Of a stretch of DNA of 64,000 bases, positions 23,046 to 60,621 are shown piece by piece (positions within the stretch are counted from its first letter, which is position 1; each line of letters opens with the position of its first letter). The notes beneath the pieces are model-generated. The model saw only the letters and a program-made list of their open reading frames with translations. It was not told the origin of the DNA and searched no databases. The position numbers and the translations under genes are program-made. Where the stretch lies: assembly GCF_020073745.1 (NCBI RefSeq), contig NZ_JAIRAU010000047.1, positions 29,990 through 93,989 on the forward strand. Reading direction: 5' to 3'. Source of the DNA: Nannocystis pusilla (GTDB taxonomy: Bacteria; Myxococcota_A; Polyangia; Nannocystales; Nannocystaceae).

Positions 23046-23128
23046 GAGACATGACCTTCGGGGCATGTCCTGAAGGTCATATCTCGGCAACCATGTCTTC
23101 ACGGACATGTCGTCCATGACATGTCCCC
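23046..23128. repeat. array of 5-6 RCATGYCC-type units in the gap before the histidine kinase gene
   Basis: gagacatgacc / ggcatgtcc / ggtcatatc / ccatgtcttc / ggacatgtcg / gacatgtcccc. Confidence 0.65.
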
Positions 23129-38851: not shown

Positions 38852-40090
38852 TCAGCCGGCGCTCTCGCCGAGGATCCGCCGCACCTCGACCACGTCGGAG
38901 AACGGCCGCGTCTGTCCGCGGCAGACCTGGCCCTCCTCGTGGCCCTTGCCGGCGATGACGACCACGTCGCCGGCGCCGGCCTCCGCGAGCGCACCCGCGA
39001 TCGCCCGCGCCCGATCGAGCTCGATCGTCCACGTCGCCCGCCGGCCCTGCAGGCCCTCGCTCACCATCGCCGCGATCGCGGCCGGGTCCTCGTCGCGCGG
39101 GTTGTCGCTCGTCACCACCGCGACGTCCGCGTGCGCACCCACGGCCTCGCCCATCGGCGCCCGCTTCTCCGGCGTCGAGTTGCCGCCCGCGCCGAACACC
39201 ACGATCACGCGCCCCGCCGCGCCCGCCAGCCGCCGCGCCGTCGCGCACGTGCAAGCCAGCGCGTCCGGCGAGTGCGCGTAGTCGACGGCGATCGTCGGCC
39301 GGCCCGCCCCGTGCAACAGCACCTCGAAGCGGCCCGGCACCACCGGACAGGCCGCGATCCCGTGCACCACCGCGGTCGCGGGCAACCCGGCCGCCAGCCC
39401 CGCGAGCGCGGCCGCCAGCGCGTTCTCGCCGAACACCTCGCCGACCATCCGCGTCGTCAGCACCCCGCCGAGCGCCGTCGCGGCCGGCGACGGCTGCAGC
39501 AGCACGCGCGTCCCCGTCGGTCCGACCTCGATCGCCGCCGCCTCGAGGTCCGCCGCGCGCAGCCGCGGGCCGCGGCCCGGCGCCGCGAACCAGCGCCGCT
39601 CCACGTCGCCGGGGATCGCCTGGTCGACGTACAGCGCGTGCTTGTCGGCCGCGTTGAGCACCGCCGCGCGCCCGGGGCCCAGGTGCATGAACAGCTGGGC
39701 CTTGGCCGCGAGGTAGTGCTCCCAGCTGCCGTGCGTGCCGAAGTGGTCGTCCGAGAGGTTGGTGAACACGCCCAGGTCGAACCGCCAGTTGCGCGCGTAG
39801 CCCTGCGCCAGCGCGTGGCTGGTCGTCTCGATCACCGCGTAGCGACAGCCGCGCGCGTGGGCCCGCTCGAGCGTCGCCACGAAGTCGGCGAACCGCTTGC
39901 CGCGCGGCCACGCCTCGTCGTCGAAGGCCACCCCGAGCGTCGACACCTGCAGCACGTGCAGCGCCGCCGTGCGCACCGCCGCCGCGATCATCCACGTCGT
40001 CGACGTCTTGCCGTTCGTGCCGGTGACCCCGAACGTGAACATCGACTCGGCCCACGGCGCCGCCGCCGCGACCGGGCGCGCGGCGCTCAC
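38852..40090 (-). CDS. Mur ligase family protein (MurE-like central and C-terminal domains, short N-terminus)
   Basis: GVTGTNGKTSTTWMI P-loop, DYAHSPDAL and C-terminal IAGKGHEEGQ, all typical of MurE-type ligases. Only about 20 residues precede the P-loop. Confidence 0.65.
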   Translation of the reverse strand: MSAARPVAAAAPWAESMFTFGVTGTNGKTSTTWMIAAAVRTAALHVLQVSTLGVAFDDEAWPRGKRFADFVATLERAHARGCRYAVIETTSHALAQGYARNWRFDLGVFTNLSDDHFGTHGSWEHYLAAKAQLFMHLGPGRAAVLNAADKHALYVDQAIPGDVERRWFAAPGRGPRLRAADLEAAAIEVGPTGTRVLLQPSPAATALGGVLTTRMVGEVFGENALAAALAGLAAGLPATAVVHGIAACPVVPGRFEVLLHGAGRPTIAVDYAHSPDALACTCATARRLAGAAGRVIVVFGAGGNSTPEKRAPMGEAVGAHADVAVVTSDNPRDEDPAAIAAMVSEGLQGRRATWTIELDRARAIAGALAEAGAGDVVVIAGKGHEEGQVCRGQTRPFSDVVEVRRILGESAG

Positions 40091-40142
40091 GACACGCCCC
40101 TTTCAACATGTCCCATCACACATGCTCCTGACGACATGCCCG
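40090..40142. repeat. four RCATGYCC units between trpF and the Mur ligase gene
   Basis: cgacacgcccc / aacatgtccc / cacatgctcc / gacatgcccg, with 4-nt spacers. Confidence 0.6.
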
Positions 40143-41651: not shown

Positions 41652-42719
41652 TCAGGGTAGCGCAGCGCGGCTGGCGGCGACGAGCCGGTCGAGCACCGCC
41701 GCGGCGCGGCCGTCGTCGAGCGCCGCGCCGATCGCCCGCGCCTTGGCCGGCAGCGCCTCCAGGCCGTCGTCGCCCGCGGCCAGCAGGGCCAGCGCCCCGC
41801 TGTACTGCACACTTGTCCGGTACGCCCCCGGCTCGCCGGCCAGCAAGCCCCGCAGCGCGTTCGCGTTGCCGGCCGCGTCGTCGCCGGCGATCGCCGCGAT
41901 CGGCACCTCCGGCAGCCCGGCGTCGCCCGGGCGCAGCGTGTACGTGCGCAGCGCGCCCCGGTGCCACTCCGCGATCGTGCTCGCGCCCTCCGGGCTGAGA
42001 TCGTCGATCCCCGGCCGCTCCGCGCCGGCGAAGAACCCGTGGACCACGAACACGCGCTCGCTGCCGAGGGCCCCGAGCGCCGCCGCCATCGCCTCGACCT
42101 TGCCCGGGTCGAACACCCCGATCACCTGGCGCCGCACCCCCGCGGGGTTGCACATCGGCCCCACCAGGTTGAACAGCGTGCGCAGCCCCAGCGCCTTGCG
42201 CGGGCCGGCCGCGTGGCGCATCGCCGGGTGCAGGTTGGGCGCGAACATGAAGCCGACGCCGACCTCGTCGACGCACTTGCCGACCCGCTCGGGCGGCGCC
42301 GTGATGTCGACGCCGAGCGCGGCCAGCACGTCGGCCGAGCCGCACGGGCTCGAGATCCCGCGGTTGCCGTGCTTGGCCACCCGCGCCCCGCAGGCCGCCG
42401 CCGCGATCGCCACCGCCGTCGACACGTTGCGCCGGGCCACCCCGCTGCCGCCGGTCCCACAGGTGTCGATCGCCCCGGCCTCGCGCAGCGGCACCGCGAC
42501 CACCGCCTCCCGCATCGCCCGCACCGCGCCGGCGATCACCGCCGCCGTCTCCCCGCGGATCGAGAGCCCGACCAAGAGCCCGCCGATCTGCGCCGGGTCG
42601 GCCGCGCCGGCCACGATCTCGCGGAAGATCGCCAGCGCCTCGTCCTCGCCGACCGCCTCGCCGCGGACCAGCCGCGCCAGCCCGCGCCGCAGCGCCCCGT
42701 CAGCTGCTCCTTCGGTCAT
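41652..42719 (-). CDS. trpD: anthranilate phosphoribosyltransferase
   Basis: DTCGTGGSG, KHGNRGISS, and C-terminal family match. ATGA overlap with the trpG stop. Confidence 0.9.
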   Translation of the reverse strand: MTEGAADGALRRGLARLVRGEAVGEDEALAIFREIVAGAADPAQIGGLLVGLSIRGETAAVIAGAVRAMREAVVAVPLREAGAIDTCGTGGSGVARRNVSTAVAIAAAACGARVAKHGNRGISSPCGSADVLAALGVDITAPPERVGKCVDEVGVGFMFAPNLHPAMRHAAGPRKALGLRTLFNLVGPMCNPAGVRRQVIGVFDPGKVEAMAAALGALGSERVFVVHGFFAGAERPGIDDLSPEGASTIAEWHRGALRTYTLRPGDAGLPEVPIAAIAGDDAAGNANALRGLLAGEPGAYRTSVQYSGALALLAAGDDGLEALPAKARAIGAALDDGRAAAVLDRLVAASRAALP

Positions 42720-43405
42720 GTCGCTCCCGCCATGTTCGAAGGGACATGCATCTCGAGGAAGGTGCGGAGCATCGCGTGGCCGTGCTCGCTGAGCACCGAC
42801 TCCGGGTGGAACTGGACCCCGTGGAGCGGCCGCGTGGCGTGCCGCACCCCCATCAGCTCGCCGACGTCGGTGCGCGCGTTGGGCACCAGCGCGGCCGGCA
42901 GCGTGCTCTCGACCGCGGCCAGGCTGTGGTAGCGGGTGGCCATGAACGGCGACGGCAGGCCGGCGAACACCCCGGTGTTGTCGTGCACCATCGGCGACAG
43001 CTTGCCGTGCATGATCCGCCCGGCCCGCTCGACCCGCGCGCCCAGCACCTCGCACAGCGTCTGGTGACCGAGGCAGACCCCGAGCAGCGGGATCGCCGGC
43101 GCGTCGGCCTCGGCCAGCCGCCGGCACAGGTCCTGGCACACCCCGCTGTCGCTCGGCGTACCTGGCCCCGGGGACAGCATGATGTGGCTCGGCGCGTCGG
43201 CCAGCACCTGCTCCAGCGTGACCGCGTCGTTGCGGTGGACGTCGACCACCACGCCGAGCTGCAGCAGGTACTGCACCAGGTTGAAGGTGAACGAGTCGTA
43301 GTTGTCGATCATCAGCACGCGGCAGCCCGCGCGGGCCGGGCCGCTCGGTCGCAGGCGCTGGCCGCCCGGCAACGGCGGCGCCGCGGATTGGACGGTCTCG
43401 GTCAC
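42716..43405 (-). CDS. trpG: anthranilate synthase component II (glutamine amidotransferase)
   Basis: VLMIDNYDSFTFNLVQYL, GVCLGHQ catalytic Cys, HGV.FHPE. GTG start overlaps the trpE stop (GTGA) behind an aaggagg RBS. Last 11 codons are built from motif units. Confidence 0.85.
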   Translation of the reverse strand: MTETVQSAAPPLPGGQRLRPSGPARAGCRVLMIDNYDSFTFNLVQYLLQLGVVVDVHRNDAVTLEQVLADAPSHIMLSPGPGTPSDSGVCQDLCRRLAEADAPAIPLLGVCLGHQTLCEVLGARVERAGRIMHGKLSPMVHDNTGVFAGLPSPFMATRYHSLAAVESTLPAALVPNARTDVGELMGVRHATRPLHGVQFHPESVLSEHGHAMLRTFLEMHVPSNMAGAT

Positions 43406-45018
43406 GCTGCACCTCCTTCGGCGGCCGCCGCCGCGATCGCGCGCAGCACCGCGCTCGCCTTGACGTGGCACTCGTTGTCCTCGCCCTCGGGCGACGAATC
43501 GTAGACGACCCCCGCGCCGGCCTGGACCCGGAACTCGTCGCCGACGGCGACCAGCGAGCGGATGCAGATGGCGAAGTCGGCCGCGCCGTCGTAGCCCAGG
43601 TAGCCGACGGCGCCGCCGTACCAGCCGCGCGGCGCCGGCTCGAGCGCGTCGATGATCTGCAGCGCGCGGATCTTCGGCGCCCCGCTCAGCGTGCCGGCCG
43701 GGAACGTCGCGCGCAGGGCGTCGAGCGCCGTCAGCTCCGGCCGCAGCTCGCCCTGCACCTCGCTGACGATGTGCATCACCCGGCTGTAGCGCTCGATCGA
43801 GAACGACTCCGACACGCGCACGCTGCCGGCCACGCTGACGCGCCCGAGGTCGTTGCGCCCGAGGTCGACCAGCATCAGGTGCTCGGCGCGCTCCTTCGGA
43901 TCGGCGAGCAGCTCGCTGGCCAGCGCCTCGTCCTCGATCACGTCGTGCCCGCGCCGCCGCGTGCCCGCGATCGGCCGCACCGTCACGCGCAGGCCCGACT
44001 GCGGCGCCGTCTCGCTGCTGGCCGCGCCCGTCACCGCCGGCGCCAGCGCGTCGCGGTCGACCCGCACCAGCACCTCGGGCGACGCGCCCGTGAGCGCCGC
44101 GGCCGGCAGGTCGAACAGGTACATGTACGGCGCCGGGTTGCCGACCCGCAGCATCCGGTAGACGTCGAGCAGGTCGATGTCGCCGCGCCGCGACACGAAC
44201 CGCTGCGACAGCACGACCTGGAAGATGTCGCCGGCCATGATGTGCTCGCGCGCGCTGGCCACCGACGCGCGGTAACCCGCGCGCGACCACGGCGCCGCCA
44301 CCTCGGTCGCCGGCGGCTGCACCTCCGGCACCCCCCGCGGCCGCAGCACCGACGGCCCCAGCAGCGCCGCCGCCACCGCGTCGACGCGGGCCCGCGCGGC
44401 CGCCTCCGCCGCCTCCGGCCCGCCCTCGCTCTCCGCGCACGCGGTCGCCAGCACGCGCACCCGCTGCGAGAAGTTGTCGAACACCACCAGCGTGTCGGTC
44501 GCCACCAGTTCGACCGCCGGCAGATCGCTCGACATGACCGAAAGGCCAGGTACGGGCGGGATCGGATCGAACACGCGCGCCGCGTCATGACCCCACACGC
44601 CGACCAGGCCACCCCAGAAGCGCGGCAGCTCGGCCCGCGGCGGGCTGTCGTAGGCCCGCTGCAGCGCCGCGATCCCGCCGAGCCCGCGGCTCTTGGCCTC
44701 GACCCCCGGCGGCAGCGAGAAGCCCGGCCCCGGGGTGATCGTCACGTCGAGGTCGTAGCCGTTCCACACCCCGCGCACGTGGGCCCGCGCGCCGACGCCC
44801 ACCACGCTGTAGCGGGCCCACCGCTCGCCGGCCCCACCCGCGCTCTCGAGCAGGAAGCTGACGCCGGGCAGATCCGGCGGCCCCGAGCTGCTGCCCCGCG
44901 CGTAGGCCCGCAGGCGGGCGTAGACCTCGACGGGAGTGATGCCGTCACACAGCAGCTCGCGCCATACCGGCACCAGCCGCGGCGCACTCGGCTCGATCAA
45001 AGGCGGGCCCGCGATCAT
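43402..45018 (-). CDS. trpE: anthranilate synthase component I
   Basis: Chorismate-binding C-terminal domain (GTLSGAPKIRA, GWYGGAVGYLGYDG, GAGVVYDS). N-terminal Trp-feedback region. Confidence 0.9.
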   Translation of the reverse strand: MIAGPPLIEPSAPRLVPVWRELLCDGITPVEVYARLRAYARGSSSGPPDLPGVSFLLESAGGAGERWARYSVVGVGARAHVRGVWNGYDLDVTITPGPGFSLPPGVEAKSRGLGGIAALQRAYDSPPRAELPRFWGGLVGVWGHDAARVFDPIPPVPGLSVMSSDLPAVELVATDTLVVFDNFSQRVRVLATACAESEGGPEAAEAAARARVDAVAAALLGPSVLRPRGVPEVQPPATEVAAPWSRAGYRASVASAREHIMAGDIFQVVLSQRFVSRRGDIDLLDVYRMLRVGNPAPYMYLFDLPAAALTGASPEVLVRVDRDALAPAVTGAASSETAPQSGLRVTVRPIAGTRRRGHDVIEDEALASELLADPKERAEHLMLVDLGRNDLGRVSVAGSVRVSESFSIERYSRVMHIVSEVQGELRPELTALDALRATFPAGTLSGAPKIRALQIIDALEPAPRGWYGGAVGYLGYDGAADFAICIRSLVAVGDEFRVQAGAGVVYDSSPEGEDNECHVKASAVLRAIAAAAAEGGAA

Positions 45019-45170
45019 GGCCCTCAGGATACACCGCGTCGGCCGACCCGATCGACGGCGCAGTTCGAGCGCCGAGGTAGGACACACGCCGGATCGCGGC
45101 CACGCCGCGGTCGCGGCCGCGCGCCGGAGCCCCTCCGCTCGCGCAGCCGCCGAGGTCCGCGGCGCAGACG

Positions 45171-45818
45171 CTAGCGGCGCCGCCGGCGATCGCCCGAGCC
45201 CGAGTCGGAGTCGGTGTCGGTGATCCGGATGTTTCCGAGGGTATAGCCGGTGTAGGCGCGCACGCTCGAGTCGAAGCGGACGCTGCCCGACACGATCGCG
45301 GTCCCGTTGGCGTCGTTCCAGCTGTAATTGACGACGAGCGAGTTGTCGGTGGCGGTGGCGACCGACTGGTCGACCGCGTAGCCGGCCTCCGCCTTGACCC
45401 GGATGTCGATCTTGCCGACGTTGTCGACGATCTGGGTGCGACCCTGTCTGACGGCCTGCTTCCAGATCCGCTCGTAGGTGTGGTCGGCCGGGTCGAGCAG
45501 CGTCACGGTGCCGGTGGTCTCCGCCGGGTCGAAGACGTCGCGGGCGACCTTCTGCACCGTCGCCGGCACGTCGGGCTCCGGGTTGCCGACGAGCTTGACC
45601 GTCAGGACGCCGATGGTCGCGCCGAACGAGTTGCGGAACGCCATCTTGTATTTGGTCTTCTCCTCCGGCGTGCTCGCGCTCTCGTCCTCGAACGTGATCG
45701 TCGTCCCCGTCAGGTTGGTGGTGAACGTCGCGTTCATCTCGAGGTCGAGGTCGCTCACGGGCCCCGACGTGATGCCCGTCTTGCTGAGCACATCTCGCTT
45801 CATCTTCGGTGTCGGCAT
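45171..45818 (-). CDS. hypothetical protein
   Basis: 215-aa ORF with good codon bias and slightly lower GC. No signal peptide or known motif. Confidence 0.45.
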   Translation of the reverse strand: MPTPKMKRDVLSKTGITSGPVSDLDLEMNATFTTNLTGTTITFEDESASTPEEKTKYKMAFRNSFGATIGVLTVKLVGNPEPDVPATVQKVARDVFDPAETTGTVTLLDPADHTYERIWKQAVRQGRTQIVDNVGKIDIRVKAEAGYAVDQSVATATDNSLVVNYSWNDANGTAIVSGSVRFDSSVRAYTGYTLGNIRITDTDSDSGSGDRRRRR

Positions 45819-45970
45819 GCTGTCAATCCCCCGGACCTGTCACTGCCCGGATCCCCCGGCGAATGAGCGTAACCCAACCCCCTCCTGGATCAGTCGCTCG
45901 TACATACAATCATGTTACGGGCCGCGCGCCGACGCCCGGCGCAGGATCGCCCGCCGGCCCCGCCCCGCGC

Positions 45971-46025
45971 GCAAATGCCCCGCCTCCATGCTAGCACTTC
46001 GAGACATGTCCGTTTCGACATGGTC
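45971..46025. repeat. motif array downstream of the Ser/Thr kinase gene
   Basis: gcaaatgcccc / tccatgctagc / gagacatgtccg / gacatggtc. Confidence 0.55.
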
Positions 46026-46036
46026 TGAAGAGCACG

Positions 46037-48913
<2,877 letters not shown>

Positions 48914-49189
48914 CTGCGAGCGATCGAGGCGGGAGAACCCGCCGGCGGTGCTGCGCGCGCTGACCGGGCCCGCGAAAAGCCCGTCGCCCGTCCCCGCCGC
49001 CGCCTCGCCCACACCGGCATGGTATCAAGCCCCGGCCAGTTGTGGGTCGGGCTGGGTGTGGAGCCCCGTTTGCAGGCGAGCGGCTGCGCCGCCGTCCGGG
49101 CCGACGCGCACGAGATTCGCCGCGCACGCCGTGCGTCGCGGGGGTGTGCGGTCGCCTTCGCGGCCTGGCGGCGCCGCGCCGCGTGAGGC

Positions 49190-49218
49190 TTGACTCCGCG
49201 GCCCTCCGGGCCTGAAAA
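49190..49218 (+). promoter_or_regulatory. possible sigma-70-like promoter (TTGACT, 17-bp spacer, TGAAAA) just upstream of glyA
   Basis: Hexamers read directly. A transcript would have almost no leader. Speculative. Confidence 0.2.
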
Positions 49219-49227
49219 CCTCGGGCG

Positions 49228-50487
49228 ATGCACGCCCGCGATCCCGAGCTCTCCGCCGCCGACCCCGAGATCTTCGCGCTGATCGAGCAGGAGGACGCGC
49301 GCCAGCGCGACAGCCTGCGCCTGATCGCCAGCGAGAACTACGTGTCGAAGGCCGTGCTCGCCGCCACCGGCAGCAGCCTCACCAACAAGTACGCCGAGGG
49401 TTATCCGGGCAAGCGGTACTACGAGGGCATGGACTTCGTCGACCCGATCGAGTCGCTCGCCGTCGCCCGCGCGCGCGAGCTGTTCGGGGCCGACCACGCC
49501 AACGTGCAGCCTTACAGCGGATCGCCGGCCAACCTCGCCGCGCTGCTCGCCCTGTGCCAGACCGGCGACACGATCATGGGGCTCAGCCTCCCCGCGGGCG
49601 GTCACCTCACCCACGGGTGGAAGGTCAGCGCCACCGGCATCTACTACAAGGCCGTCCAGTACGGCGTCCGCCGCGACGATCACCGCATCGACATGGACGA
49701 GGTCCGCAGCCTCGCGCTGACCCATCGCCCCAAGCTCATCTGGGTCGGTCACTCGGCCTACCCGCGCCAGCTCGACTTCGCCGGCTTCGCCGCGATCGCG
49801 CGCGAAGTCGGGGCCTACCTCGCGGCCGACATCGCGCACATCGCCGGCCTCGTCGCCGGCGGCGCGCACCCGAGCCCGGTGCCGCACGCCGACGTCGTCA
49901 CCACCACCACGCACAAGACCCTCCGCGGCCCGCGCGGCGGCCTCATCCTCTGCAAGGCCGAGCACGCCGCCGCGATCGACAAGGCCGTGTTCCCCGGCCT
50001 GCAGGGCGGCCCCCACTGCCACACCACCGCGGCCAAGGCGGTCGCCTTCCGCGAGGCGCTGCAGCCGAGCTTCCGCGACTACGCGCAGCAGATCGTCGCC
50101 AACGCGCGGGCCCTCGCCGAGGCCCTGAGCGGGCGCGGACACACGCTCGTCTCCGGCGGCACCGACAACCACCTCTTGCTCGTCGATCTCACGTCCACCG
50201 GTCACGGCGGTCGGCACGTCGCCCGGGTGCTCAACCGCTGCGGCATCGAGCTCAACGCCAACGCGATCCCGTTCGACCCGCGCAAGCCGTTCGACCCCTC
50301 GGGCCTGCGGATCGGCCTCGCCGCGATCACCTCGCGCGGCGTCCAGACCCATCACATCCCGCACGTCGCCGACCTCATCGCCGACGGCATCGGCCTCGCC
50401 GTCGCCGACGCCGACGACGCCAAGTGCGAGGCCCACCGCGCCCGCGTGCGCGAGTTCCTGCGCGCCTTCCCGGCCCCCGGCCTGTGA
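49228..50487 (+). CDS. glyA: serine hydroxymethyltransferase
   Basis: [21 protein letters not shown] (PLP-Lys), full-length SHMT. Confidence 0.9.
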
Positions 50488-50498
50488 CCGCCACCGCG

Positions 50499-51680
50499 AT
50501 GCAGCCGTACCCGATCACCGCTATGGCCCTGTGCAACGGCATGGGCGACAGCACCGCCGCCGTGCTCGCGGCCCTGCGCGCCGGTCGCTCCGGCCTCGGC
50601 CCGTGCCCCGCCGAGTTCGAGCTCGACGCCGTCGTCGGCGCCGTCCCGGGCCCGCTGCCGCCGCTGCCCGGCTCCCTCGAGCGCGTGCGCGACACCCGAC
50701 AGACGCGGATCGCCGCCGTCGCCCTCGCCGAGCTGCAGGCCCCGCTCGCCCGCGCCTGCGCCCGCTGGGGCGCCGATCGCGTCGGCGTCGTCCTCGGCAC
50801 CAGCACCGGCGGCATCGAGGCCAGCGAGGGCGCCTACGCCCACGCCCACGCCCACGGCGGCGCCTTGCCGTCCCACTACGACGTCGAGCGCTCGCACGCC
50901 CTCGACGCCGTCCTCCACCTCGCGCGCGTCTTCGGCGGCGGCCTCGCCGGCCCGGCCTACGTCGTCTCGACCGCCTGCTCCTCGAGCGCCAAGGTGTTCG
51001 CCTCGGCCCAGCGCCTGCTCGCCGCCGGCCTGTGCGACGCCGTCCTCGTCGGCGGCGTCGACAGCCTGTGCCGCCTCACCGTGCGCGGCTTTGCTGGCCT
51101 CGAGGTCCTGTCCTCTGCGCCATGTCGTCCGTTCTCGCGCGAGCGCGCCGGCATCAACATCGGCGAGGGCGCCGCCCTGCTCCTGGTCGAACGGACAGGT
51201 GAGGGCCCCGCCCGCCTGCTCGGCGTCGGCGAGAGCAGCGACGCCTACCACATGACCAGCCCGCACCCCGAGGGCCTCGGCGCCCGCCTGGCGATGGAGC
51301 GCGCGCTGCAGCTCGCCGGCCTCGTCGCCGCCGACGTCGACCACGTCAACGCCCACGGCACCGGCACCCGGCAGAACGACAGCATGGAGAGCCAGGCGAT
51401 CCGCGCCGTCTTCGCCGGCGCGCCCGCGCCCGCCGTCGTCGCCACCAAGGGCTACACCGGGCACATGCTCGGGGCCGCCGGCGCCACCGAGGTCGCCTTC
51501 GTCGTCGACGCCATCGCCGGCGGCTACCTCCCGGCCAGCGTCGGCGCCGACCCGCTCGACGAGGCGCTCGGCGTCGACGTCGTCACCGCCCGCCGCGAGC
51601 AGCGGACCCGCGCGGCCCTCAGCAACTCGTTCGCGTTCGGCGGCAGCAACTGCAGCGTCCTCGTCGGAGGCCCGGCATGA
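50499..51680 (+). CDS. beta-ketoacyl-ACP synthase (KAS I/II-like)
   Basis: Active-site Cys in VVSTACSSS. His-His pair (AHGTGT, GHMLGAAG). C-terminal NSFAFGGSNCSVLV. Stop overlaps the next start. Confidence 0.8.
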   Translation: MQPYPITAMALCNGMGDSTAAVLAALRAGRSGLGPCPAEFELDAVVGAVPGPLPPLPGSLERVRDTRQTRIAAVALAELQAPLARACARWGADRVGVVLGTSTGGIEASEGAYAHAHAHGGALPSHYDVERSHALDAVLHLARVFGGGLAGPAYVVSTACSSSAKVFASAQRLLAAGLCDAVLVGGVDSLCRLTVRGFAGLEVLSSAPCRPFSRERAGINIGEGAALLLVERTGEGPARLLGVGESSDAYHMTSPHPEGLGARLAMERALQLAGLVAADVDHVNAHGTGTRQNDSMESQAIRAVFAGAPAPAVVATKGYTGHMLGAAGATEVAFVVDAIAGGYLPASVGADPLDEALGVDVVTARREQRTRAALSNSFAFGGSNCSVLVGGPA

Positions 51681-52468
51681 GCGCGCCCGGCTTCAGCGTC
51701 CGCGGCCTCGGCTTCTGGGCCCCCGGCTACCCCGACCTCGCCGCCTGGCAGGCCCGCCCCGACGCCTGTCCCGAAGACCAGAGTGCCACGCCGAAGGCCG
51801 AGCTCTTGCCGCCGATGATGCGCCGGCGCACCAGCCTGCTCACCCGCATGGCCGCCGAGGTCGCGGCCCAGGCCCTGCGCGCCGGCGGCCTCGACCCGAC
51901 CGGCGCCACCCTCGTCTACGGCTCCGTCTACGGCGAGATCCGCACCACCCTCGACCTCCTGGCCGCCCTGCTCGTCGCCGGCGAGCCGCTGTCGCCGACC
52001 AAGTTCCACAACAGCGTCCACAACACCGCCGCCGGCTACGTCTCGATCGCCACCGGCAGCCGGGCCGGCAACGCCGCCCTCTCGGCCGGCCGCTCCACCC
52101 TCGCCATGGGCCTGCTCGAGTGCGCCGCGCTCGTCGCCGCCGGCGAGGGCGACGTCGTGCTCGTCATCGCCGAGGAGCCGCTGCCCGAGCCGCTGGCCGC
52201 CGGCCGCCGCTGGGGCCCGTTCGCCGCCGCCTTCGCCCTGGCCGCGCCTGCCTCTTCAGACATGCCCGCCACGACATGTCGTCTGGAACAGGGCCCCAAC
52301 GACAAGTCCCTCGCGCCAGCACGTCCCGCGCCGGCGTGGCTGGCCGACAACCCGTGCGCCGCCGCGCTCGCGCTGGTCGACGCCCTCGCCGCCGGCGCCC
52401 CCGCCCGCGTCGCCCTCGAGCCGCACCTCGCCGCCGGCTGGCACTGCGGGCTGGGGGCCGGCGCATGA
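51677..52468 (+). CDS. KS-like protein lacking the catalytic Cys (chain-length-factor-like partner)
   Basis: KS N-terminal fold similarity without the TACSS motif. Contains an in-frame motif insertion. ATGA overlaps on both sides. Confidence 0.6.
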   Translation: MSAPGFSVRGLGFWAPGYPDLAAWQARPDACPEDQSATPKAELLPPMMRRRTSLLTRMAAEVAAQALRAGGLDPTGATLVYGSVYGEIRTTLDLLAALLVAGEPLSPTKFHNSVHNTAAGYVSIATGSRAGNAALSAGRSTLAMGLLECAALVAAGEGDVVLVIAEEPLPEPLAAGRRWGPFAAAFALAAPASSDMPATTCRLEQGPNDKSLAPARPAPAWLADNPCAAALALVDALAAGAPARVALEPHLAAGWHCGLGAGA

Positions 52469-52917
52469 CCGCCGCGTTCGCGCCGGTGGCCGAGTTGGTC
52501 CCGCAGCGCCCGCCGATGCTGCTCGTCGACGAGGTCCTCGCCGCCGGCGACGACGCGATCACCTGCGCCGCCGTCGTCCGCCCCGACAACCTGTTCGCCG
52601 TCGCCGGCCGCGTCCACGCCTCCGTCGCGCTCGAGTACATGGCCCAGGCGATCGCCGCGTTCGCCGGCCTGCGCGCGCGCGCCGAGGGTCAGCCGCCCGC
52701 GCTCGGCATGATCGCCGCCTGCCGCGGCCTCGAGCTGCACGCCGAGCACCTCGCCGTCGGCGACGCGCTGCAGATCGTCGCCACCCGCGTGTTCGCCGGC
52801 GCCATGGCCGAGTACCGGGCCGCCGTCACCCGCCGCGGCGAGCCGCTCGCCGAGGCCGTCCTCCACGTCGTCACCGCCGCCCCTGCCACCACCACCGCCC
52901 CCGGGAGCCCCGCATGA
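52465..52917 (+). CDS. FabA/FabZ-like hot-dog 3-hydroxyacyl-ACP dehydratase
   Basis: PMLLVDEV motif and hot-dog length (150 aa). Confidence 0.6.
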   Translation: MTAAFAPVAELVPQRPPMLLVDEVLAAGDDAITCAAVVRPDNLFAVAGRVHASVALEYMAQAIAAFAGLRARAEGQPPALGMIAACRGLELHAEHLAVGDALQIVATRVFAGAMAEYRAAVTRRGEPLAEAVLHVVTAAPATTTAPGSPA

Positions 52918-53636
52918 AGCCGCGCGCGCTCGTCACCGGCGCCAGTCGAGGGATCGGCGCCGCGATCGCCGAGGCCCTCGCGGCCGCCGGCCACCCGATC
53001 GTCCTCAACTACCGCAGCGACGACGCCGCCGCCGAGGCCGTCGCCGCCCGGATCCGCCAGGCCGGCGGCGAGGTCGTCCTCAGCCGCTTCGACGTCGGCG
53101 ACGACGCGGCCGCCGACGCCGCCATGGCCGCGATCCTGGCCGACCCGCGGCCGCTCGGCGTCGTCGTCAACAACGCCGGCATCGCCCGCGACGCCCCGTT
53201 CCCGGCGCTCGAGCGGGCCGACTGGGAAGCTGTCCTTCGGACCAGCCTCGGCGGCTTCTACAACGTCACCCGGCCCGTGATCATGCCGATGGTGCGGCGC
53301 AAGTGGGGCCGGATCATCACCATGAGCTCGGTCTCGGCGCAGATCGGCAACCGGGGTCAGGTCGCCTACGCCGCGGCCAAGGCCGGCGTCATCGGCGCGA
53401 CGAAGTCGCTCGCGCTCGAGCTCGCCCGCAAGGGCGTCACCGTCAACGCCGTCGCCCCCGGCCTCGTCGACACCGACATGATCAAGGACGTCCCGCTCGA
53501 GCACGTCATGCCGCGGATCCCCGCCCAGCGGCTCGGCACTGCCCGCGAGGTCGCCGCGCTGGTCGCCTTCCTCGCCACCGACGAAGCCGCCTACATCACC
53601 GGTCAGGTGATCGGTGTCAACGGCGGCATGGTATGA
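52914..53636 (+). CDS. 3-oxoacyl-ACP reductase (SDR family, FabG-like)
   Basis: TGASRGIGAAIA cofactor motif, NNAG, catalytic S...YAAAK. Confidence 0.85.
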   Translation: MKPRALVTGASRGIGAAIAEALAAAGHPIVLNYRSDDAAAEAVAARIRQAGGEVVLSRFDVGDDAAADAAMAAILADPRPLGVVVNNAGIARDAPFPALERADWEAVLRTSLGGFYNVTRPVIMPMVRRKWGRIITMSSVSAQIGNRGQVAYAAAKAGVIGATKSLALELARKGVTVNAVAPGLVDTDMIKDVPLEHVMPRIPAQRLGTAREVAALVAFLATDEAAYITGQVIGVNGGMV

Positions 53637-53643
53637 CGCGGCC

Positions 53644-54843
53644 ATGCATGACGTCGTGATCGTCGGCGCCGGCCCTGCCGGTTCGACCGCCGCCAACTTG
53701 CTCGCCCAGGCCGGCGTCCGCGCGCTCGCGCTCGACATGGACGTGTTCCCGCGGTTTCACATCGGCGAGTCGCTGCTGCCGATCGACCTGCCGATCTTCG
53801 CCCGCCTCGGCGTCGTCATGGAGCGCACGCGCTGGCAGTACAAGCAGGGCGCCGAGTTCATCGACGAGCGCACCGGCGAGTTCGCCTTCTTCAGCTTCGC
53901 CGACGGCCTCGAGGGCACGCCCCCCCACGCCTGGCAGGTCGACCGCGCCGAATTCGACACCATGCTCGCCGAGCTCGCGGTCTCCCGCGGCGCCGACATC
54001 CGCTTCGGCGAGCGCGTCGGCGACATCGAGTTCGCCGGCGATCACGTCCGCGTCGTCACCGACCGCGGCGAGCACCGGGCCCGCTTCCTCCTCGATTGCA
54101 CCGGTCAGGACGCCATGCTCGGCCGCGGCGCCCGCACGATCGCCCCGCTGCACGAGCTCGGACGCGCCGCCGTCTTCTGTCACTTCGACGACCTCGCGCC
54201 CGACGTGCAGGCCGAGCTCGGCGAGCAGGGCAACATCAAGGTCCTGATCGTCGAGGACGGCTGGCAATGGGTGATCCCGATGCACGGCGGTCGGCTCAGC
54301 GTCGGCCTCGTCAAGTGGCGCGGCAAGCTCGACGACGACGCCTTCGAGGCCGCCCTCGCCGCCTCGCCGCTGTGTCGCCGGCTCACCGCCGGGGCCACGC
54401 GCAGCGCCTCGCGGACGATCCGCAACTGGAGCTACAAGAACACCCGCCCCTCCGGTCCGCGCTGGGCCTGCGTCGGCGACGCCCGCGCCTTCCTCGACCC
54501 GGTGTTCTCGTCGGGCGTCTCGCTGGCGATGCTGGGCGCCGAGCGGACCGTCGACCTCCTCGTCCCTGCCCTCGCCGCCGGACGCGAGGCCGACCCCGAT
54601 CTCATGGGCCCCGTCCACGCCACCATGCAGATCGCCTACGACAGCTTCGAACAGCTGATCCGCCGCTTTTACCACACGCGCCTCGTCTCCCACCTGTTCT
54701 TCGCCCGCACGCCCGACCCGCAGCTGCGTCGTGGCCTCATCAGCATGCTCGCCGGCGACGTCTGGCGCGACGACAACCCGTTCCAGGACATGCTCCGCGG
54801 GTCACGCGTCCAGCCGCAGCGGGTCACGACGCCGGGCGAGTGA
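53644..54843 (+). CDS. flavin-dependent halogenase-like FAD-binding enzyme
   Basis: VVIVGAGPAGS Rossmann motif. GWQWVIP (WxWxIP) and FLDPVFSSG (FxxPxxSxG) motifs characteristic of tryptophan-halogenase-family enzymes. Confidence 0.7.
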   Translation: MHDVVIVGAGPAGSTAANLLAQAGVRALALDMDVFPRFHIGESLLPIDLPIFARLGVVMERTRWQYKQGAEFIDERTGEFAFFSFADGLEGTPPHAWQVDRAEFDTMLAELAVSRGADIRFGERVGDIEFAGDHVRVVTDRGEHRARFLLDCTGQDAMLGRGARTIAPLHELGRAAVFCHFDDLAPDVQAELGEQGNIKVLIVEDGWQWVIPMHGGRLSVGLVKWRGKLDDDAFEAALAASPLCRRLTAGATRSASRTIRNWSYKNTRPSGPRWACVGDARAFLDPVFSSGVSLAMLGAERTVDLLVPALAAGREADPDLMGPVHATMQIAYDSFEQLIRRFYHTRLVSHLFFARTPDPQLRRGLISMLAGDVWRDDNPFQDMLRGSRVQPQRVTTPGE

Positions 54844-54992
54844 CTGCAGCTCTTGTAAGCCAGATCGCAATTTTGGCAGTACGCCGCCCCTGAACGCGCT
54901 CGGGCTCCAGGCTCAGCTCGGGGTGGTTGCGTGTGCAATCATTGCAATTTCACGCTTCTCATTGTTCCCTGACGCGCAAGGGGACGAGTCGC

Positions 54993-56243
54993 ATGCACGA
55001 ACGGATCCTTCCTCGCATCCGGGTCGGGGTCGCCGCGCGTATGGGCGGCGGGGTGCTGGCCGTGGCGCTCGCGGGCTGCCTCGATCGCAACGCCGGGCTC
55101 GACGATCCGACCGTCGTCGAGCCTTCGACCGGCGACAGCAGCGGCAGCAGCAGCGGCTCGACCACCTTCCCCGGCATCATGACCACCACGGTCGACTCCG
55201 GTCACGGCGGCAGCGACAGCGACGGCACCACCGCCGAGCCCGCGCCCGAGCCGTGCGGCAACGGCAAGATCGACCCGCCCGAGCTGTGCGACCAGGGCGA
55301 GGCCAACTCCGACGCCGGCGAGTGCACCCTCGCCTGTCGCTGGAACGTGTGCGGCGACGGCCGCGTCCACCTCGGCGACGAGGCCTGCGACGACGGCCCC
55401 GACAACGGCAAGTACGGCCACTGCGACATGAAGTGCGGCGGCCCGGCCGAGCGCTGCGGCGACCTCTCGGTGCAGGCCGACGAGGGCGAGCAGTGCGACT
55501 CGAGCGACCCACACTTCGCCTGCCTCAAGGAGTGCACGTGGGCGACCTCGTGCACCAACATCAAGGCCAGCTGGGGCGACGAGGCCAAGACCGGCCTCTA
55601 CCTCATCCGCCGCATGAGCCAGTTCTTGACCGTCTGGTGCGACATGGACGCCGACGGCGGCGGCTACACCTTCGTCAAGTACGCCTCGGGCACCGTGCTC
55701 GACGACATGAACGACCCCCAGTACCCGTTCAACCCCGAGCCGCTCACCGCCGTCGAGGCCGAGCAGAAGTGCGGCTACTGGGGCCTGCGACTGTTCGCCC
55801 CGCGCAGCCCCGGGCACCTCGCCGCCGCCGTCGGGGCCGCCAACGCCAAGCAGTTCGCCCCGATCCAGAAGGACACCCTGTTCCCGCCGTACCCCGAGAT
55901 CGACAGCGACGTCGAGGGCTACCTGTCGATCATGGGCGTCTATCCGGTCACCCCCGGCACGAGCTGCGTCGGCAAGGCGCTCAACAGCGAGGACTGCCCC
56001 GAGTGGGCGATCAAGCCCGATCCGCTGCACCCCGACGTCGTCCTGCCCTACTGGGTCAGCGACACCTCCATCGCCAACCAGCCGAACACCACCGCCTGCG
56101 CCGGCTGCTCCCTCTTCTACCACTGGAACATCGTCGCCCAGCCGCCCCAGCTCGCCGGCTACATCACGATCAACATGATGAACAAGGGCGCGATCAGCTC
56201 GCACTTCCTGTGCGAGCTCGGCGACAAGCTCGGCCCGGGCTGA
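54993..56243 (+). CDS. lipoprotein with Cys-rich repeats and C-terminal fibrinogen-related domain
   Basis: VLAVALAGC lipobox. Cys-rich repeats (CGNGKIDPPELCDQGEAN, CGDGRVHLGDEACDDGPDNG). FLTVWCDMDADGGGYTFVKYASG matches the fibrinogen C-domain signature (VYCDM-DGGGWT). Confidence 0.6.
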   Translation: MHERILPRIRVGVAARMGGGVLAVALAGCLDRNAGLDDPTVVEPSTGDSSGSSSGSTTFPGIMTTTVDSGHGGSDSDGTTAEPAPEPCGNGKIDPPELCDQGEANSDAGECTLACRWNVCGDGRVHLGDEACDDGPDNGKYGHCDMKCGGPAERCGDLSVQADEGEQCDSSDPHFACLKECTWATSCTNIKASWGDEAKTGLYLIRRMSQFLTVWCDMDADGGGYTFVKYASGTVLDDMNDPQYPFNPEPLTAVEAEQKCGYWGLRLFAPRSPGHLAAAVGAANAKQFAPIQKDTLFPPYPEIDSDVEGYLSIMGVYPVTPGTSCVGKALNSEDCPEWAIKPDPLHPDVVLPYWVSDTSIANQPNTTACAGCSLFYHWNIVAQPPQLAGYITINMMNKGAISSHFLCELGDKLGPG

Positions 56244-56336
56244 GCCGCGCGGCTGACCGTCCGGCATGTCCTCTCGGCCAGCCGTTGCCGAGCGCGGGAC
56301 TCGTCGGCCCGAGCGCTCGCGGCGGCCGCACGCCGC

Positions 56337-56933
56337 TCAGCCGAGCTCGAGCGTCGCCAGCAGCTCCACCACCTCCGCGAGCGGCAGCCCGACCACGTTG
56401 GTGTAGCTGCCCTCGATCCGGCGCACCAGGCCGGCCGCCGCGCCCTGGATCCCGTAGGCGCCGGCCTTGTCGCGCCACTCTTCCGTGTCGAGGTAGCGGT
56501 CGATCTGCGCCGGCGTCAGCGGCCGGAACCACACCGTCGTCGTCACCGCGAACGGGTGCCAGCGGACCTCGGGCCCGCGGGCGTCGGCGACCGCCACCGC
56601 CGTCGTCGTGAAGTGCGAGCGCCCGGCCAGGCGCGTCAGCATCGCAGCCGCCTCCGCGCGGTCGGCCGCCTTGGCCAGCGGCTCGATCTGTCCTTCGAGC
56701 CAGACCGTCGTGTCGGCCGCCAGCACCACCACACCTGGCCGCAAGGCCAGCTCTGCCTTGGCCCGCGCGACCCGCTCGACGTACCGCGGCGGCGGCTCGT
56801 CGGCGAACCACGTCTCGTCGCAATCGACCGGCGCGCGCGCGAACGCGATCCCGGCCGAGCGGAGCAGCTCGGCGCGACGCGGCGACGCCGACGCGAGGAC
56901 GAGGGTCGAAGAGGGCTGCGGCTGTCCGGACAT
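56337..56933 (-). CDS. maf: Maf-like nucleoside triphosphate pyrophosphatase
   Basis: LVLASASPRRAELL, AYGIQG, and family length. Confidence 0.85.
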   Translation of the reverse strand: MSGQPQPSSTLVLASASPRRAELLRSAGIAFARAPVDCDETWFADEPPPRYVERVARAKAELALRPGVVVLAADTTVWLEGQIEPLAKAADRAEAAAMLTRLAGRSHFTTTAVAVADARGPEVRWHPFAVTTTVWFRPLTPAQIDRYLDTEEWRDKAGAYGIQGAAAGLVRRIEGSYTNVVGLPLAEVVELLATLELG

Positions 56934-57332
56934 CGCCCGCGGATCTGCCGGATCGGCGGCCCGCGTGCAACCGCCGCGGCAGCCGCACACGTCGACGCGG
57001 GGCGGCCACACAGGCGCGAGCGTCCCGGCACGCCCCGCGAGCGGCTCCCGCCCTCTGCGCTCCTGTTCGCGTCACCCGTGAACCTCGTCGCCGCCCGAGC
57101 ACGCGGCCGCTCGCCTCGGCGACGCCCGACCTCGCCGCCCCCCTCGCCTCGCGCCGCCCGGCCGATGTTCCGCGCAGCCTTCGCGGCCGCTCGCCTCGGC
57201 GCCGCACTCCCTCGCCTCGCGCCGCCCGGCCAAACCTTCGCGCAAGCGGCCGCGACCGCCACGGGCGGCCCTTCACGCCGGCAGGCGTCCGCGCCTCCGG
57301 GCCGTGCGGCCGCGCGTGCTACCATCCCGGCC

Positions 57333-58214
57333 ATGCGGCGCCCCTTCTGTCTCTCGAGCGTCTACCTCCTCGCGGTCCTCGCGCTGTCGGCCCCGTTCAT
57401 CACCGCCTCGCCGCTCGCGCCCGCCGAGCCTGTCCCCGAGGACAGCTGTGCGATCGAGGCCGTCGACCCCGCGCTGCTCGGCGTGTGGCACCGCTTCGAC
57501 GCCCTCGCCGAGGGCGACCGCATGCGCTTCTGGTTCTTCCACGAGGGCGGCTTCGGCCTCTACCGCTACGGCAAGGTCGGCCTGACCAACACCCACAGCT
57601 TCGACTACAGCGCCGAGGGCGGCGTCCTCGAGCTGACCTTCCGCAAGACCGGCGAGCGCCGGCGCGTCCCCTACCGCCTCGAAGACGACGGCGGCCGCAC
57701 CTGGCTGGTCCTCGACGACGACCCGCGCGAGGCCGGCGGCGCCCGCTACTTCAAGGCCCCGGCGGCGGCCACCGGCGCCCCCTGCTTCGACGCCTCCGAG
57801 GACATGTCCCGGGCGACAGGCTCCGAAGGACATGTTCCTGCGGCCAGCGACCGGATCGGCGGGCGGCTGTGGGGCGAGGAGGTCCGCTACGCCACCGGCG
57901 GCATGGGCTTCTCGATCTACCAGCTGCAGCCGCAGGCGATCGACGGCCGCGGCGTCGGCTGGCACCACCGCGGCGACTACGACGAGTGGACCACCGAGAC
58001 CCTCACCTACCGCCAGCGCGGCGACCGGCTGGCGCTGTCGTTCCCGCTGCGCCACGACGGCCTCGAGACCGCGATCACCGTCAGCGGCAGCGGCGACGAC
58101 CGCACGCTCCACCTCGCCGAGGACCCGCGCGACTTCTGGCGCGCCCACACCTACCGCGACATGGGCCCGACCTTCGCCGGCGCCGCCGCCCCGGCCGCCT
58201 GCCTGCCGCAGTAG
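57333..58214 (+). CDS. hypothetical secreted protein
   Basis: Signal peptide MRRPFCLSSVYLLAVLALSAPFITA. Contains an in-frame motif insertion at 57801-57838. Confidence 0.5.
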   Translation: MRRPFCLSSVYLLAVLALSAPFITASPLAPAEPVPEDSCAIEAVDPALLGVWHRFDALAEGDRMRFWFFHEGGFGLYRYGKVGLTNTHSFDYSAEGGVLELTFRKTGERRRVPYRLEDDGGRTWLVLDDDPREAGGARYFKAPAAATGAPCFDASEDMSRATGSEGHVPAASDRIGGRLWGEEVRYATGGMGFSIYQLQPQAIDGRGVGWHHRGDYDEWTTETLTYRQRGDRLALSFPLRHDGLETAITVSGSGDDRTLHLAEDPRDFWRAHTYRDMGPTFAGAAAPAACLPQ

Positions 58215-59319: not shown

Positions 59320-60621
59320 GTGCCCAAGGCACCCCTGCTCGCTCCGCCCGGGCCGCCGACGCTCACCTTCCGCTGGGACGGCGCCCCCGTCGCCGCCTGC
59401 CCCGGCGACACCGTCGCCTCGGCGCTGATCGCCGCCGGCGAGCTCGCCACCAGCCGCAGCGCCAAGTACCGCCGCCTGCGCGGCCCGGCCTGCCTGCACG
59501 GCGGCTGCGGCACCTGCCTGGTGCGCGTCGACGGCCGGCCCAACCAGCGCGCCTGTCTCACGCCTGTCCGCGAGGACATGGTCGTCGAGCCGCAGAACAC
59601 CTACGGCGGCCTCGACCCGACCGCCCTCGTCGACCAGATCTTCCGCCGCGGCATCGACCACCACCACCTCGTCGTCTACCCCCGGCTCGCCAACCAGATG
59701 ATGCAGGGCGTCGCGCGCGAGCTGGCCGGCTTCGGCGAGCTGCCCGACGCCCCGCCCGAGGGCGCCGCCGGTCTCTTCGACCATGTCCCCGAGGTCCTGG
59801 TCATCGGGGCAGGTCGCTCCGGGCGCGCGCTCGCGGCCGCCCTCGCCGCCGCCGGGCGCCCGCCGCTGGTCGTCGAGCGCCGGGCCGCCGCCGCCCTGCC
59901 CGCCGCCGAGCGCCCGGCCCGGCTGCTCGCCGGCGTCGGCGTGTTCGCCTGCTACCCGCAGGAGCGGCTGTGGGCGGCCGCCTCCGAGCACCCGCCCGTG
60001 CTCCACCGGCTGCGCCCGCGCCACGTCGTGCTGGCCGTCGGCGCCCACGAGCCGACCATCCCGCTGGCCAACAACGACCTCCCCGGGGTCGTCTCGGCGC
60101 GTGGCCTCGCGGACATGCTCGAACAGACAGGTCGCCGCCTCGCCGCGCGCGTCGTCGTCGTCGGCGAGGGCCCGCGCGCCGAGCTGCTCGCCGCCGGCCT
60201 CGGCGCCGAGCGGGTCGCCCCGGCGCGCGTGCACAAGCTGCTCGGCGCCCGCCGGGTCAAGGGCGTGCAGCTCGACGACGGCAAGATCCTCCGCTGCGAC
60301 CTCGTCGCCCTCGCCCCCGACCCCGCCCCCGCGTTCGAGCTGGCCGCCCAGGCCGGCGCGCCGATCCGCTTCACCGGGGCCGGCTTCGCCCCCGTCTGCG
60401 ACCCCGACGGCCGGATCGCCGCCGGCCCGGCCGCCCACCCGCTCGAGGCCGCCGACGCCCAGACCGCCCCGCCGCCGCCGTGGACCCTGTGGGCAGTCGG
60501 CGAGCTGGCCGGCGCGACCACCCCCGCGGAGATCCAGGCCAGCGTCGACCGCTGCGCCGCCGCCCTCCTGCGCGCGCTCGCCGAGTCACCTGCTCCGGAG
60601 GACAGCCATGCCCGCGCCTGA
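59320..60621 (+). CDS. FAD/NAD(P)-binding oxidoreductase with N-terminal 2Fe-2S domain (HcnB / opine oxidase A / sarcosine oxidase alpha-like)
   Basis: N-terminal Cys cluster (CPGDTVASAL...CLHGGCGTC). VLVIGAGRSG Rossmann motif and second dinucleotide fold. GTG start inferred; start uncertain. Confidence 0.6.
   Translation: MPKAPLLAPPGPPTLTFRWDGAPVAACPGDTVASALIAAGELATSRSAKYRRLRGPACLHGGCGTCLVRVDGRPNQRACLTPVREDMVVEPQNTYGGLDPTALVDQIFRRGIDHHHLVVYPRLANQMMQGVARELAGFGELPDAPPEGAAGLFDHVPEVLVIGAGRSGRALAAALAAAGRPPLVVERRAAAALPAAERPARLLAGVGVFACYPQERLWAAASEHPPVLHRLRPRHVVLAVGAHEPTIPLANNDLPGVVSARGLADMLEQTGRRLAARVVVVGEGPRAELLAAGLGAERVAPARVHKLLGARRVKGVQLDDGKILRCDLVALAPDPAPAFELAAQAGAPIRFTGAGFAPVCDPDGRIAAGPAAHPLEAADAQTAPPPPWTLWAVGELAGATTPAEIQASVDRCAAALLRALAESPAPEDSHARA

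Follow-up and report, generated by a model that had tools for sequence, protein, structure and literature searches.

Phased palindromic repeat arrays at gene 3′ ends and within some coding sequences of Nannocystis

A 64,000-nucleotide stretch of a Nannocystis pusilla genome (contig NZ_JAIRAU010000047.1, positions 29,990 to 93,989; hereafter, the window) carries 26 arrays of a short palindromic repeat, set head to tail in a strict 14-bp register, that belong to a lineage-specific Nannocystis family tied to the 3′ ends of genes. The normal place of these arrays is the first 0–25 nt past a stop codon, in 3′ flanks, at operon junctions, and in the gaps between convergent genes. A minority overlaps coding sequence (CDS), and does so by two routes: arrays are appended to or expanded within a protein, or they are superimposed on codons. 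We consider it probable that a 3′-flank repeat family of this lineage, reaching coding sequence by one or the other route, accounts for the observations.

The window has a G+C content of ~73%, and its source is a Nannocystis genome: its Ser/Thr kinase shares 96% identity with the N. radixulma enzyme, its KS protein (50499–51680) is 91–92% identical to the N. punicea and N. pusilla counterparts, and the product of gene 57333 matches, at 100% identity, a protein under the N. pusilla name at NCBI. Exact look-ups with the SHMT and FabG proteins of the window returned no match. Syntenic relatives were graded by kinase identity, as L081 (96%), L001 and L002 (81%; the N. punicea and N. pusilla Na p29 loci, respectively), L084 (74%), L082 (65%), and L083 (52%), and were supplemented by L003 and L005. 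Genes in the window were called with a caller based on third-position G+C (GC3), and the calls agree with public ones over the syntenic 40–60 kb. Arrays were found with an iterated position-weight matrix and chaining of units at exactly 14 bp, and the null expectation for CDS was taken from 300 codon shuffles of the same CDS.

The repeat unit and its placement near gene ends

Distances from CATG to CATG in the window peak at 14, 28, 42, and 56 bp (23, 14, 8, and 6 pairs, against a background of ~1.6 per distance), and none of seven control tetramers shows a peak of the 14-bp type. The unit consists of a palindromic core, GGACATGTCC (10–12 bp), in which the center variants CAGG/CCTG are common, plus four weakly specified spacer bases. 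A fixed UUCG or GNRA tetraloop as spacer was ruled out on inspection, as the 4-nt spacers vary. The 26 arrays hold 2–6 units each and span 26–82 bp; 16 of them lie within 11.8 kb of intergenic DNA and 10 in called CDS. Strong arrays become sparser with phylogenetic distance: per 10 kb there are 3–4 among core Nannocystis genomes, 2.3 in L084, 0.9 in L082, and 0.4 in L083, and none was found in a Myxococcales metagenome-assembled genome or in proteobacterial loci.

Rfam returned no family match in the window, and the literature that we searched holds no account of the repeat family and nothing relevant on Nannocystis; the decamer was met there only as the p53 response element. Viral contigs gave no match for three units and two matches for two units, both in loci with a G+C fraction below 0.65. 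These two loci were discarded together with 36 of 92 metagenome matches on the same ground (0.40–0.63). The discarded low-G+C loci (L087, L092, L093, L107–L109, and others) are mostly near-perfect 14-bp minisatellites with ACATGTCC; they have no relation to the Nannocystis repeat, which they resemble by coincidence.

Units of at least 10 bits occur at 15.2 per kb in convergent gaps, 3.5 in tandem gaps, 0.26 in divergent gaps, and 0.38 in CDS. Across the 56 high-G+C metagenomic loci, non-ascertained arrays rank convergent over tandem over divergent gaps, as in the window (1.18, 0.46, and 0.07 per kb, with 0.03 in CDS). The seven divergent (promoter) gaps of the window hold no array and one isolated unit. 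Within tandem gaps, the array starts at a median of ~10 nt past the upstream stop codon, with the next start codon ~20–280 nt off. Several arrays end at an ATG; a start-codon or 5′-untranslated-region element was nevertheless rejected, as arrays adjoin the upstream stop, occur in convergent gaps, and are all but missing from divergent ones. Representative arrays outside coding sequence are as follows.

14790–14857: intergenic array of 5 units, beginning 5 nt past a stop codon; typical
18024–18091: two 2-unit arrays, ending 13 nt short of the stop-codon end of minus-strand gene 18105–19454
23046–23127: intergenic array of 6 units, beginning 6 nt past a stop codon; folding z = −6.1
28711–28792: array of 6 units between convergent genes
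40089–40142: intercistronic array of 4 units where the trp operon ends, in the gap that separates trpF from the following gene
46001–46026: array of 2 units, 10 nt past the stop of the kinase gene; 2 or 3 units at the orthologous site in sister species

Neighboring palindromic units can pair with each other into hairpins with 10-bp stems, and it is for this reason that intergenic arrays fold well: six of the seven tested have z between −3.3 and −6.2, and the seventh −1.8. The arrays lack a T-run and so do not have the form of Rho-independent terminators, and intrinsic terminator-like sites are at chance level in the 10–30 kb segment (4, against 3.8 ± 2.0 in shuffles). The likeliest role of the arrays, we infer, is that of factor-binding or hairpin elements that mark the ends of transcription or translation units; this end-marking role may extend to copies within long genes or in operons with little space between genes.

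One intergenic gap of 1.08 kb holds a structure of another scale, a large inverted repeat with arms at 13550–13822 and 14168–14440 (273 nt, with 90% complementarity and a separation of 345 nt). Both arms are in turn palindromes of ~215 nt, with a single GGGACATGTCC unit at the apex (13670 and 14309), and tandem repeats of 39 bp (13457–13562) and 67 bp (13883–14026) adjoin or lie inside the inverted repeat.

Two routes into coding sequence

The ten arrays in CDS compare with 0.22 expected (maximum 2) in the codon shuffles, and arrays of at least three units and at least 23 bits number 3 in the window and 0 in the shuffles. Five coding segments had been cited in an earlier note on this DNA as in-frame arrays of the repeat, all of them low-complexity and linker-like, which suggested elements that insert or expand in multiples of three or are tolerated only in frame. 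The coordinates and translations given there are correct at all five, and the trpG tail, the kinase TPR site, the CLF-like gene, and gene 57333 do carry phased arrays, whereas the kinase loop holds a single unit. Codons of these five segments end in A or T in 23 of 71 cases (32%), as against 687 of 17,360 (4.0%) overall (P = 3e-15). Six further, weaker CDS arrays (beginning at 743, 44529, 51103, 59559, 59778, and 60110), which the note had not listed, have 17 such codons out of 61. Genes and arrays are listed here in that order.

42716–43405, minus strand: trpG, class-I glutamine amidotransferase; homology to solved TrpG/PabA stops at ..TFLE
42713–42752: trpG tail array, 3 units forming the last 12 codons of trpG, EMHVPSNMAGAT
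46037–49012, minus strand: Ser/Thr kinase with TPR repeats
46921–46960: kinase TPR array, 3 units (13.5, 2.6, and 7.4 bits), one strong and two weak
48331–48364: kinase-loop site, a single degenerate unit CGGACGTGTCCC at 48340, with an adjacent half-site TGTCCC and the AT-rich codons GAA AAT ATA
51677–52468, plus strand: CLF-like gene (PF13723) in an aryl-polyene-type cluster (KS, CLF, ApeP, FabG, halogenase-like)
52257–52310: CLF array, 4 units (11.6, 16.8, 4.9, and 11.2 bits) over SDMPATTCRLEQGPNDKSL
57333–58214, plus strand: gene 57333, secreted hypothetical protein with no Pfam match
57799–57838: gene 57333 array, 3 units (18.0, 5.0, and 16.7 bits) over EDMSRATGSEGHVP, in a linker of very variable length between species
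743–768: CDS array, 2 units, reading TRMSSGTGP; 3 of 9 codons A/T-ending
44529–44554: weak array within trpE, 2 units, identical in three sister genomes
51103–51128: match within KS, 2 units over conserved ..SSAPCRPF.. (CCA TGT CGT, rare codons); may be coincidental
59559–59584, 59778–59817, and 60110–60135: three weak arrays in a 2Fe-2S/FAD-type gene (59320–60621), mostly kept in sisters (3 of 3 in L001, 2 of 3 in L002)

Orthologue alignment divides the five cited segments. Orthologues are shorter at the trpG tail (+24 nt in core Nannocystis) and at gene 57333 (+24 nt and more), and are of equal length at the CLF, TPR, and loop sites. The proposal of lineage-specific insertion is supported at the first two sites and not at the other three, where no indel is found. 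The length steps that do occur (24, 33, and 90–165 nt) are multiples of 3, as had been suggested, and not of 14 or 42, but no such rule governs unit number, as CDS arrays hold 2, 3, 4, 7, or 8 units.

At the end of trpG, the three units that had been proposed there are confirmed, with scores of 10.9, 8.2, and 8.5 bits; the last of them, ACATGA, contains the trpG stop and the trpD start together. Solved TrpG/PabA chains terminate at NFL[HK]. The gene of L083, in the 52% clade, ends NFLALTG*, followed by a 25-nt spacer with no array; that of L082 (65%) ends NFLAMGT* with 1–2 units, GGGGACATGA overlapping the trpD start; and core Nannocystis genes have three units and 24 additional nucleotides. 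The tail is, on this series, a genuine, lineage-specific C-terminal extension, made of an array that normally follows the stop codon.

Gene 57333, on the same comparative grounds, holds an in-frame array in an expandable linker. Nannocystis orthologues share D[ML]P[WR]xPGPxxHVPAAS, the product of reading three units in three frames; orthologues from distant taxa lack 11–14 residues, and the L084 gene, with a single unit, falls short by 24 nt. Duplication of array-bearing segments has lengthened the linker by ~30–55 residues (up to ~+165 nt) in N. punicea, N. pusilla Na p29, and N. bainbridge. Longer coding arrays are found in metagenomic loci: a 7-unit array (L086, 2176–2271) lies within an Lhr helicase, between its DEAD and Helicase_C (two RecA) domains, and an 8-unit array (L088, 10229–10338) lies within an open reading frame (ORF) of 1,175 residues without a Pfam match, where the peptide GMSxxTGASGHVxx recurs with the 14-residue period expected from 3 × 14 bp.

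A gene junction next to one of the cited sites supplies a further comparison. In the window (51677–51680) and in L081–L084, KS and CLF meet in an uninterrupted ATGA stop–start overlap, whereas N. punicea and N. pusilla Na p29 have an insert of 146–206 bp with two arrays (L001 11183–11387; L002 11183–11327), flanked by a direct duplication of ~19 bp, GGAGGCCCGGCATGAGCGC, that includes the ribosome-binding site and ATG. The junction is a filled versus an empty site, at which new array-bearing DNA has appeared between genes. By the first route into coding sequence, an array abutting a gene end is read through, as in the trpG tail, or an array sits and duplicates in frame within a permissive linker, as in gene 57333 and the metagenomic Lhr helicase. 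Array sequence seldom holds stop codons (intergenic arrays of at least three units average two of three frames open per strand), and this is probably why CDS arrays are tolerated.

At the remaining sites no length is added. The CLF segment is of equal length in ~70 orthologues, proteobacterial ones included. A codon alignment places four units in frame in the window, L081, L001, L002, and L084, with two units in L082 and L083 and three weak units in L005; the array is cleaner in sister species than in the window, and six genomes retain its rare codons ACA TGT. The CLF array is, to judge from this alignment, old and in place.

The kinase TPR site aligns residue for residue with all 28 homologues, without an indel. 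The structure model places GAG in a turn (residues 685–687) and the remainder at the start of a helix (688–704), with a predicted local distance difference test score (pLDDT) above 90, so that the description of all five segments as low-complexity linkers does not hold here. L084 encodes the identical 12-residue peptide in ordinary G/C-ending codons (GGG GCG GGG CCG .. CGG CGC GAT) and is motif-free, whereas the window, L081, and L001 use GCA GGT .. CGA AGG GAC and have the motif. Relative to L082, 10 of 12 residues differ between conserved flanks, and synonymous sites spell the motif. The TPR motif differs between species by substitutions rather than by insertion, whichever state is ancestral.

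The kinase-loop unit scores 8.4 bits in the window and 15.9 in relatives, and adjoins a short inverted repeat (TGTCCC..GGGACA). It is present in L082 and absent from L084 and L083, with no indel. The unit sits at the start of an older activation-loop insertion between DFG and APE, of ~90 residues in the window (48130–48400, residues 207–296), predicted to be disordered (pLDDT <50), 50–110 residues long among orthologues that share at least 50% identity, and missing from the next clade. An artefactually split kinase gene was considered and rejected, since a single frame encodes the whole kinase domain and five genomes have an intact gene. Only in N. pusilla Na p29 does the kinase orthologue fall into two ORFs (L002, ~7479–7488), of which NCBI annotates only a 650-residue TPR protein (P0009); this break is a frameshift or an assembly error, lies outside any array, and is, by our gene calls, several hundred bp from the loop motif.

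In the second route, the motif occupies existing codons while protein length stays constant (CLF, kinase TPR, kinase loop), spelled in otherwise rare codons such as ACA TGT, CAT GTC CCT, GCA GGT, and CGA AGG, with amino-acid replacements where these are tolerated. Laying a four-unit register over codons at constant length could involve selection among substitutions, short-patch conversion, or insertion with compensating deletion. Rare codons of the window at which the amino acid is conserved are identical in all close species in 11 of 14 cases inside arrays and in 33 of 94 outside (Fisher P = 0.003). This retention is suggestive of maintenance of the arrays at the nucleotide level, which could proceed through selection for a cis-function of the DNA or RNA, or through biased conversion.

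Weighing the alternatives

Several observations weigh against a 3′-flank family that overlaps coding sequence by two routes and is maintained for an end-marking function. Single units of at least 10 bits show no clear enrichment within CDS (19, against 12.2 ± 3.4 in shuffles), so that the signal lies in the phased chain. Overall synonymous identity within arrays (31 of 42) does not significantly differ from that outside (1,114 of 1,352) and is not higher, and the signal of constraint depends on 14 rare codons. L084 lacks three of the CDS motifs; turnover is therefore rapid, and a part of the copies may be no more than neutral relics. CDS arrays are mostly without hairpin stability (z ~0 to −1.1, with the exception of gene 57333 at −3.0), so a role as RNA hairpin is not obviously transferable to them. 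The G-rich strand always folds better, irrespective of gene direction, which gives no sign of action at the transcript level, and the element may act as DNA or as RNA; an RNA-level strand signal was dropped as uninformative on this account. The gene calls are our own GC3-based ones, with the comparison to public calls covering 40–60 kb only, and the function of the family is one that we infer.

Two alternatives retain some plausibility, though we would not expect either to be correct. The first extends the favored reading to a genome-wide "second code", in which phased GGACATGTCC arrays are read by a dedicated binding factor or written by a dedicated conversion system. Expression units would then need arrays at their ends, and wherever intergenic DNA is lacking the arrays would be imposed on CDS through the choice of synonymous codons and of amino acids, even inside folded domains. 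If this were true, the proteins of the lineage would be shaped in part by a noncoding repeat, with the arrays standing in for canonical terminators or acting as chromosome-structuring sites.

The second, about equally tentative, holds that the arrays are functionless, being products of slippage and duplication of a self-pairing 14-bp unit or copies of a selfish repeat that pile up where they do least harm, in 3′ flanks and permissive coding segments, with CDS copies as decaying relics. Unit number does vary between species at orthologous intergenic sites, the 57333 linker acts like an in-frame minisatellite, L084 has lost or never had three CDS motifs, and synonymous conservation as a whole is not in excess. 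However, slippage is unable to put a phased motif on existing codons at constant length, and the CLF array holds its register across core Nannocystis and as far as relatives of 52% and 48% identity. The greater retention of rare codons inside arrays and the unusual nearness of arrays to stop codons likewise speak against it.

It is rather unlikely that, along the lines of the earlier note, a small mobile element of the Rickettsia palindromic element (RPE) or exonised-MITE kind inserted in frame at all five cited sites and was kept only when its length was a multiple of three. Such an origin would fit the lineage-specific additions in trpG and the 57333 linker, the filled and empty KS/CLF junction with its flanking duplication, the 7- and 8-unit arrays in large ORFs of metagenomic relatives, and the resemblance of the segments in composition to noncoding DNA. 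But the CLF, TPR, and loop sites equal their motif-free orthologues in length, the TPR peptide is the same without the motif in L084 and belongs to a folded helix–turn, terminal inverted repeats are absent from a unit of just 14 bp, and unit counts are not multiples of three. The data so far also point away from an insertion followed by a deletion at the CLF and TPR sites.

Less probable still is a mutational "imprinting" by which arrays are created and homogenized at partial matches, coding or not, with no selection; candidate processes are ectopic short-patch gene conversion among thousands of arrays and template switching within quasi-palindromes. The units are palindromic and highly alike across the genome, and the TPR site, where the replaced residues stand between conserved flanks, has the appearance of a fixed-length gain through clustered directional changes. 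Donor tracts were not identified, however, the spacers between units are not common to arrays, and the 58-fold difference between convergent and divergent gaps would go unexplained without added selection. Finally, the motif is most improbably a side effect of selected peptides (DMS/DMP, HVP, TCR, GAG) in ordinary coding sequence that resembles the intergenic unit: although C|ATG is read with ATG as Met in 15 of the 19 single-unit CDS matches, and the KS match overlies a conserved PCRPF and recurs in L003, this explanation is largely refuted by the codon shuffles, which keep amino-acid composition, by the motif-free codons for the same TPR peptide in L084, and by the excess of A/T-ending codons, and the 14-bp register puts successive units in different frames, so that no single peptide motif can be under selection.

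Relation to known repeat families and implications

The family resembles REP/BIME, MIRU, RPE, and HIP1 elements in different respects and belongs to none of them. The REP/BIME elements of enterobacteria and pseudomonads are short, high-copy palindromes near gene 3′ ends or between the genes of an operon, often 1–20 nt past the stop, and form regularly spaced clusters that fold into stem–loops (PMC12306157, PMC2817692). The Nannocystis repeat shares the palindromic consensus, the stem–loop folding, and the many copies near gene 3′ ends. Its unit, however, is only 10–12 bp, is itself palindromic, and recurs head to tail every 14 bp, and 10 of the 26 arrays overlap CDS, which REPs seldom do. One end of a REP is marked by the tetranucleotide GTAG or CGTC (PMC3733652); the arrays and their flanks, 1,090 bp in all, contain no GTAG/CTAC, and CGTC/GACG lies below the window background. 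No RAYT (IS200/IS605-like Y1 transposase) was found among the proteins scanned from ~40–61 kb or in the gene tables of related loci.

RPEs are in-frame repeats within protein-coding genes that add peptide in tolerant places (PMC10969869, PMC3184786), and the trpG tail and the linkers of gene 57333 and Lhr are in-frame additions of a comparable kind. An RPE, however, is a discrete insertion of ~150 bp with one conserved peptide, whereas the Nannocystis unit measures 14 bp and is translated in all three frames, and three of the five sites show no insertion. Nor do the arrays, which lack terminal repeats, have the form of a discrete 100–150 bp element with terminal inverted repeats and a target-site duplication; the KS/CLF insert of the sister species does show a flanking duplication.

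MIRUs (mycobacterial interspersed repetitive units) are tandem units in operon gaps, with ORFs that overlap the ends of the flanking genes (PMC3184786). The trpG–trpD array, read through in the trpG frame with stop and start in its last unit, is MIRU-like in this respect, but MIRU units are of 40–100 bp, number ~40–50 per genome, and are not palindromic 14-mers. HIP1 (GCGATCGC) of cyanobacteria is a palindrome found between and within ORFs, with conserved orthologous positions, and is argued to be maintained by selection and to be neither a peptide nor an RNA motif (PMC5861425). The Nannocystis CDS sites are similarly conserved independent of peptide, with the CLF register kept in 6–8 genomes and the TPR peptide found with and without the motif. 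HIP1, in contrast, consists of dispersed single octamers that are abundant in CDS, whereas the arrays described here are phased and concentrated after stop codons; the single-unit counts in CDS show no clear over-representation of the HIP1 type.

Elsewhere in the window, the G+C fraction falls to 0.58–0.66 between 5000 and 8000 (~0.73 elsewhere), gene calls are few or weak at 4498–7165, and no phased array is found at 1948–8266, where a lone unit lies at 7110; the low-G+C stretch may be a foreign or noncoding island. Other tandem repeats include one of 105–108 bp at 38507–38767 (2.2–2.5 copies, 77–78% matches) within gene 38158–38778 and a CGT/GTC-rich one of 42 bp at 3092–3234 (3.3 copies) within minus-strand gene 1971–3437. 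A direct repeat of ~70–75 bp, gccgctcgcctcggcg...cctcgcctcgcgccgcccggcc, was read by eye at 57080–57250, in the divergent gap between 56337–56933 and 57333.

With no mention in the literature that we searched, the family is a hitherto undescribed and abundant repeat of a myxobacterial genus whose genomes measure 12–13 Mb; extrapolation from ~3 strong arrays per 10 kb suggests a few thousand copies per genome. Its placement next to stop codons makes it a practical marker of gene 3′ ends, and the arrays are a candidate answer to the question of how a genome of 73% G+C, without canonical T-run terminators, marks the ends of its transcription units.

The coding copies indicate that a "repeat inside a gene" is not always an insertion, and may instead be a phased noncoding motif laid over codons at constant length, in rare codons that are conserved thereafter. 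Arrays also yield protein length polymorphism between species, amounting to ~55 residues in the 57333 linker and to a new tail in trpG, and annotation pipelines and scans of nonsynonymous to synonymous substitution (dN/dS) would misread such segments. The superimposed arrays, for their part, offer a testable case of overlapping constraint at the nucleotide and protein levels.

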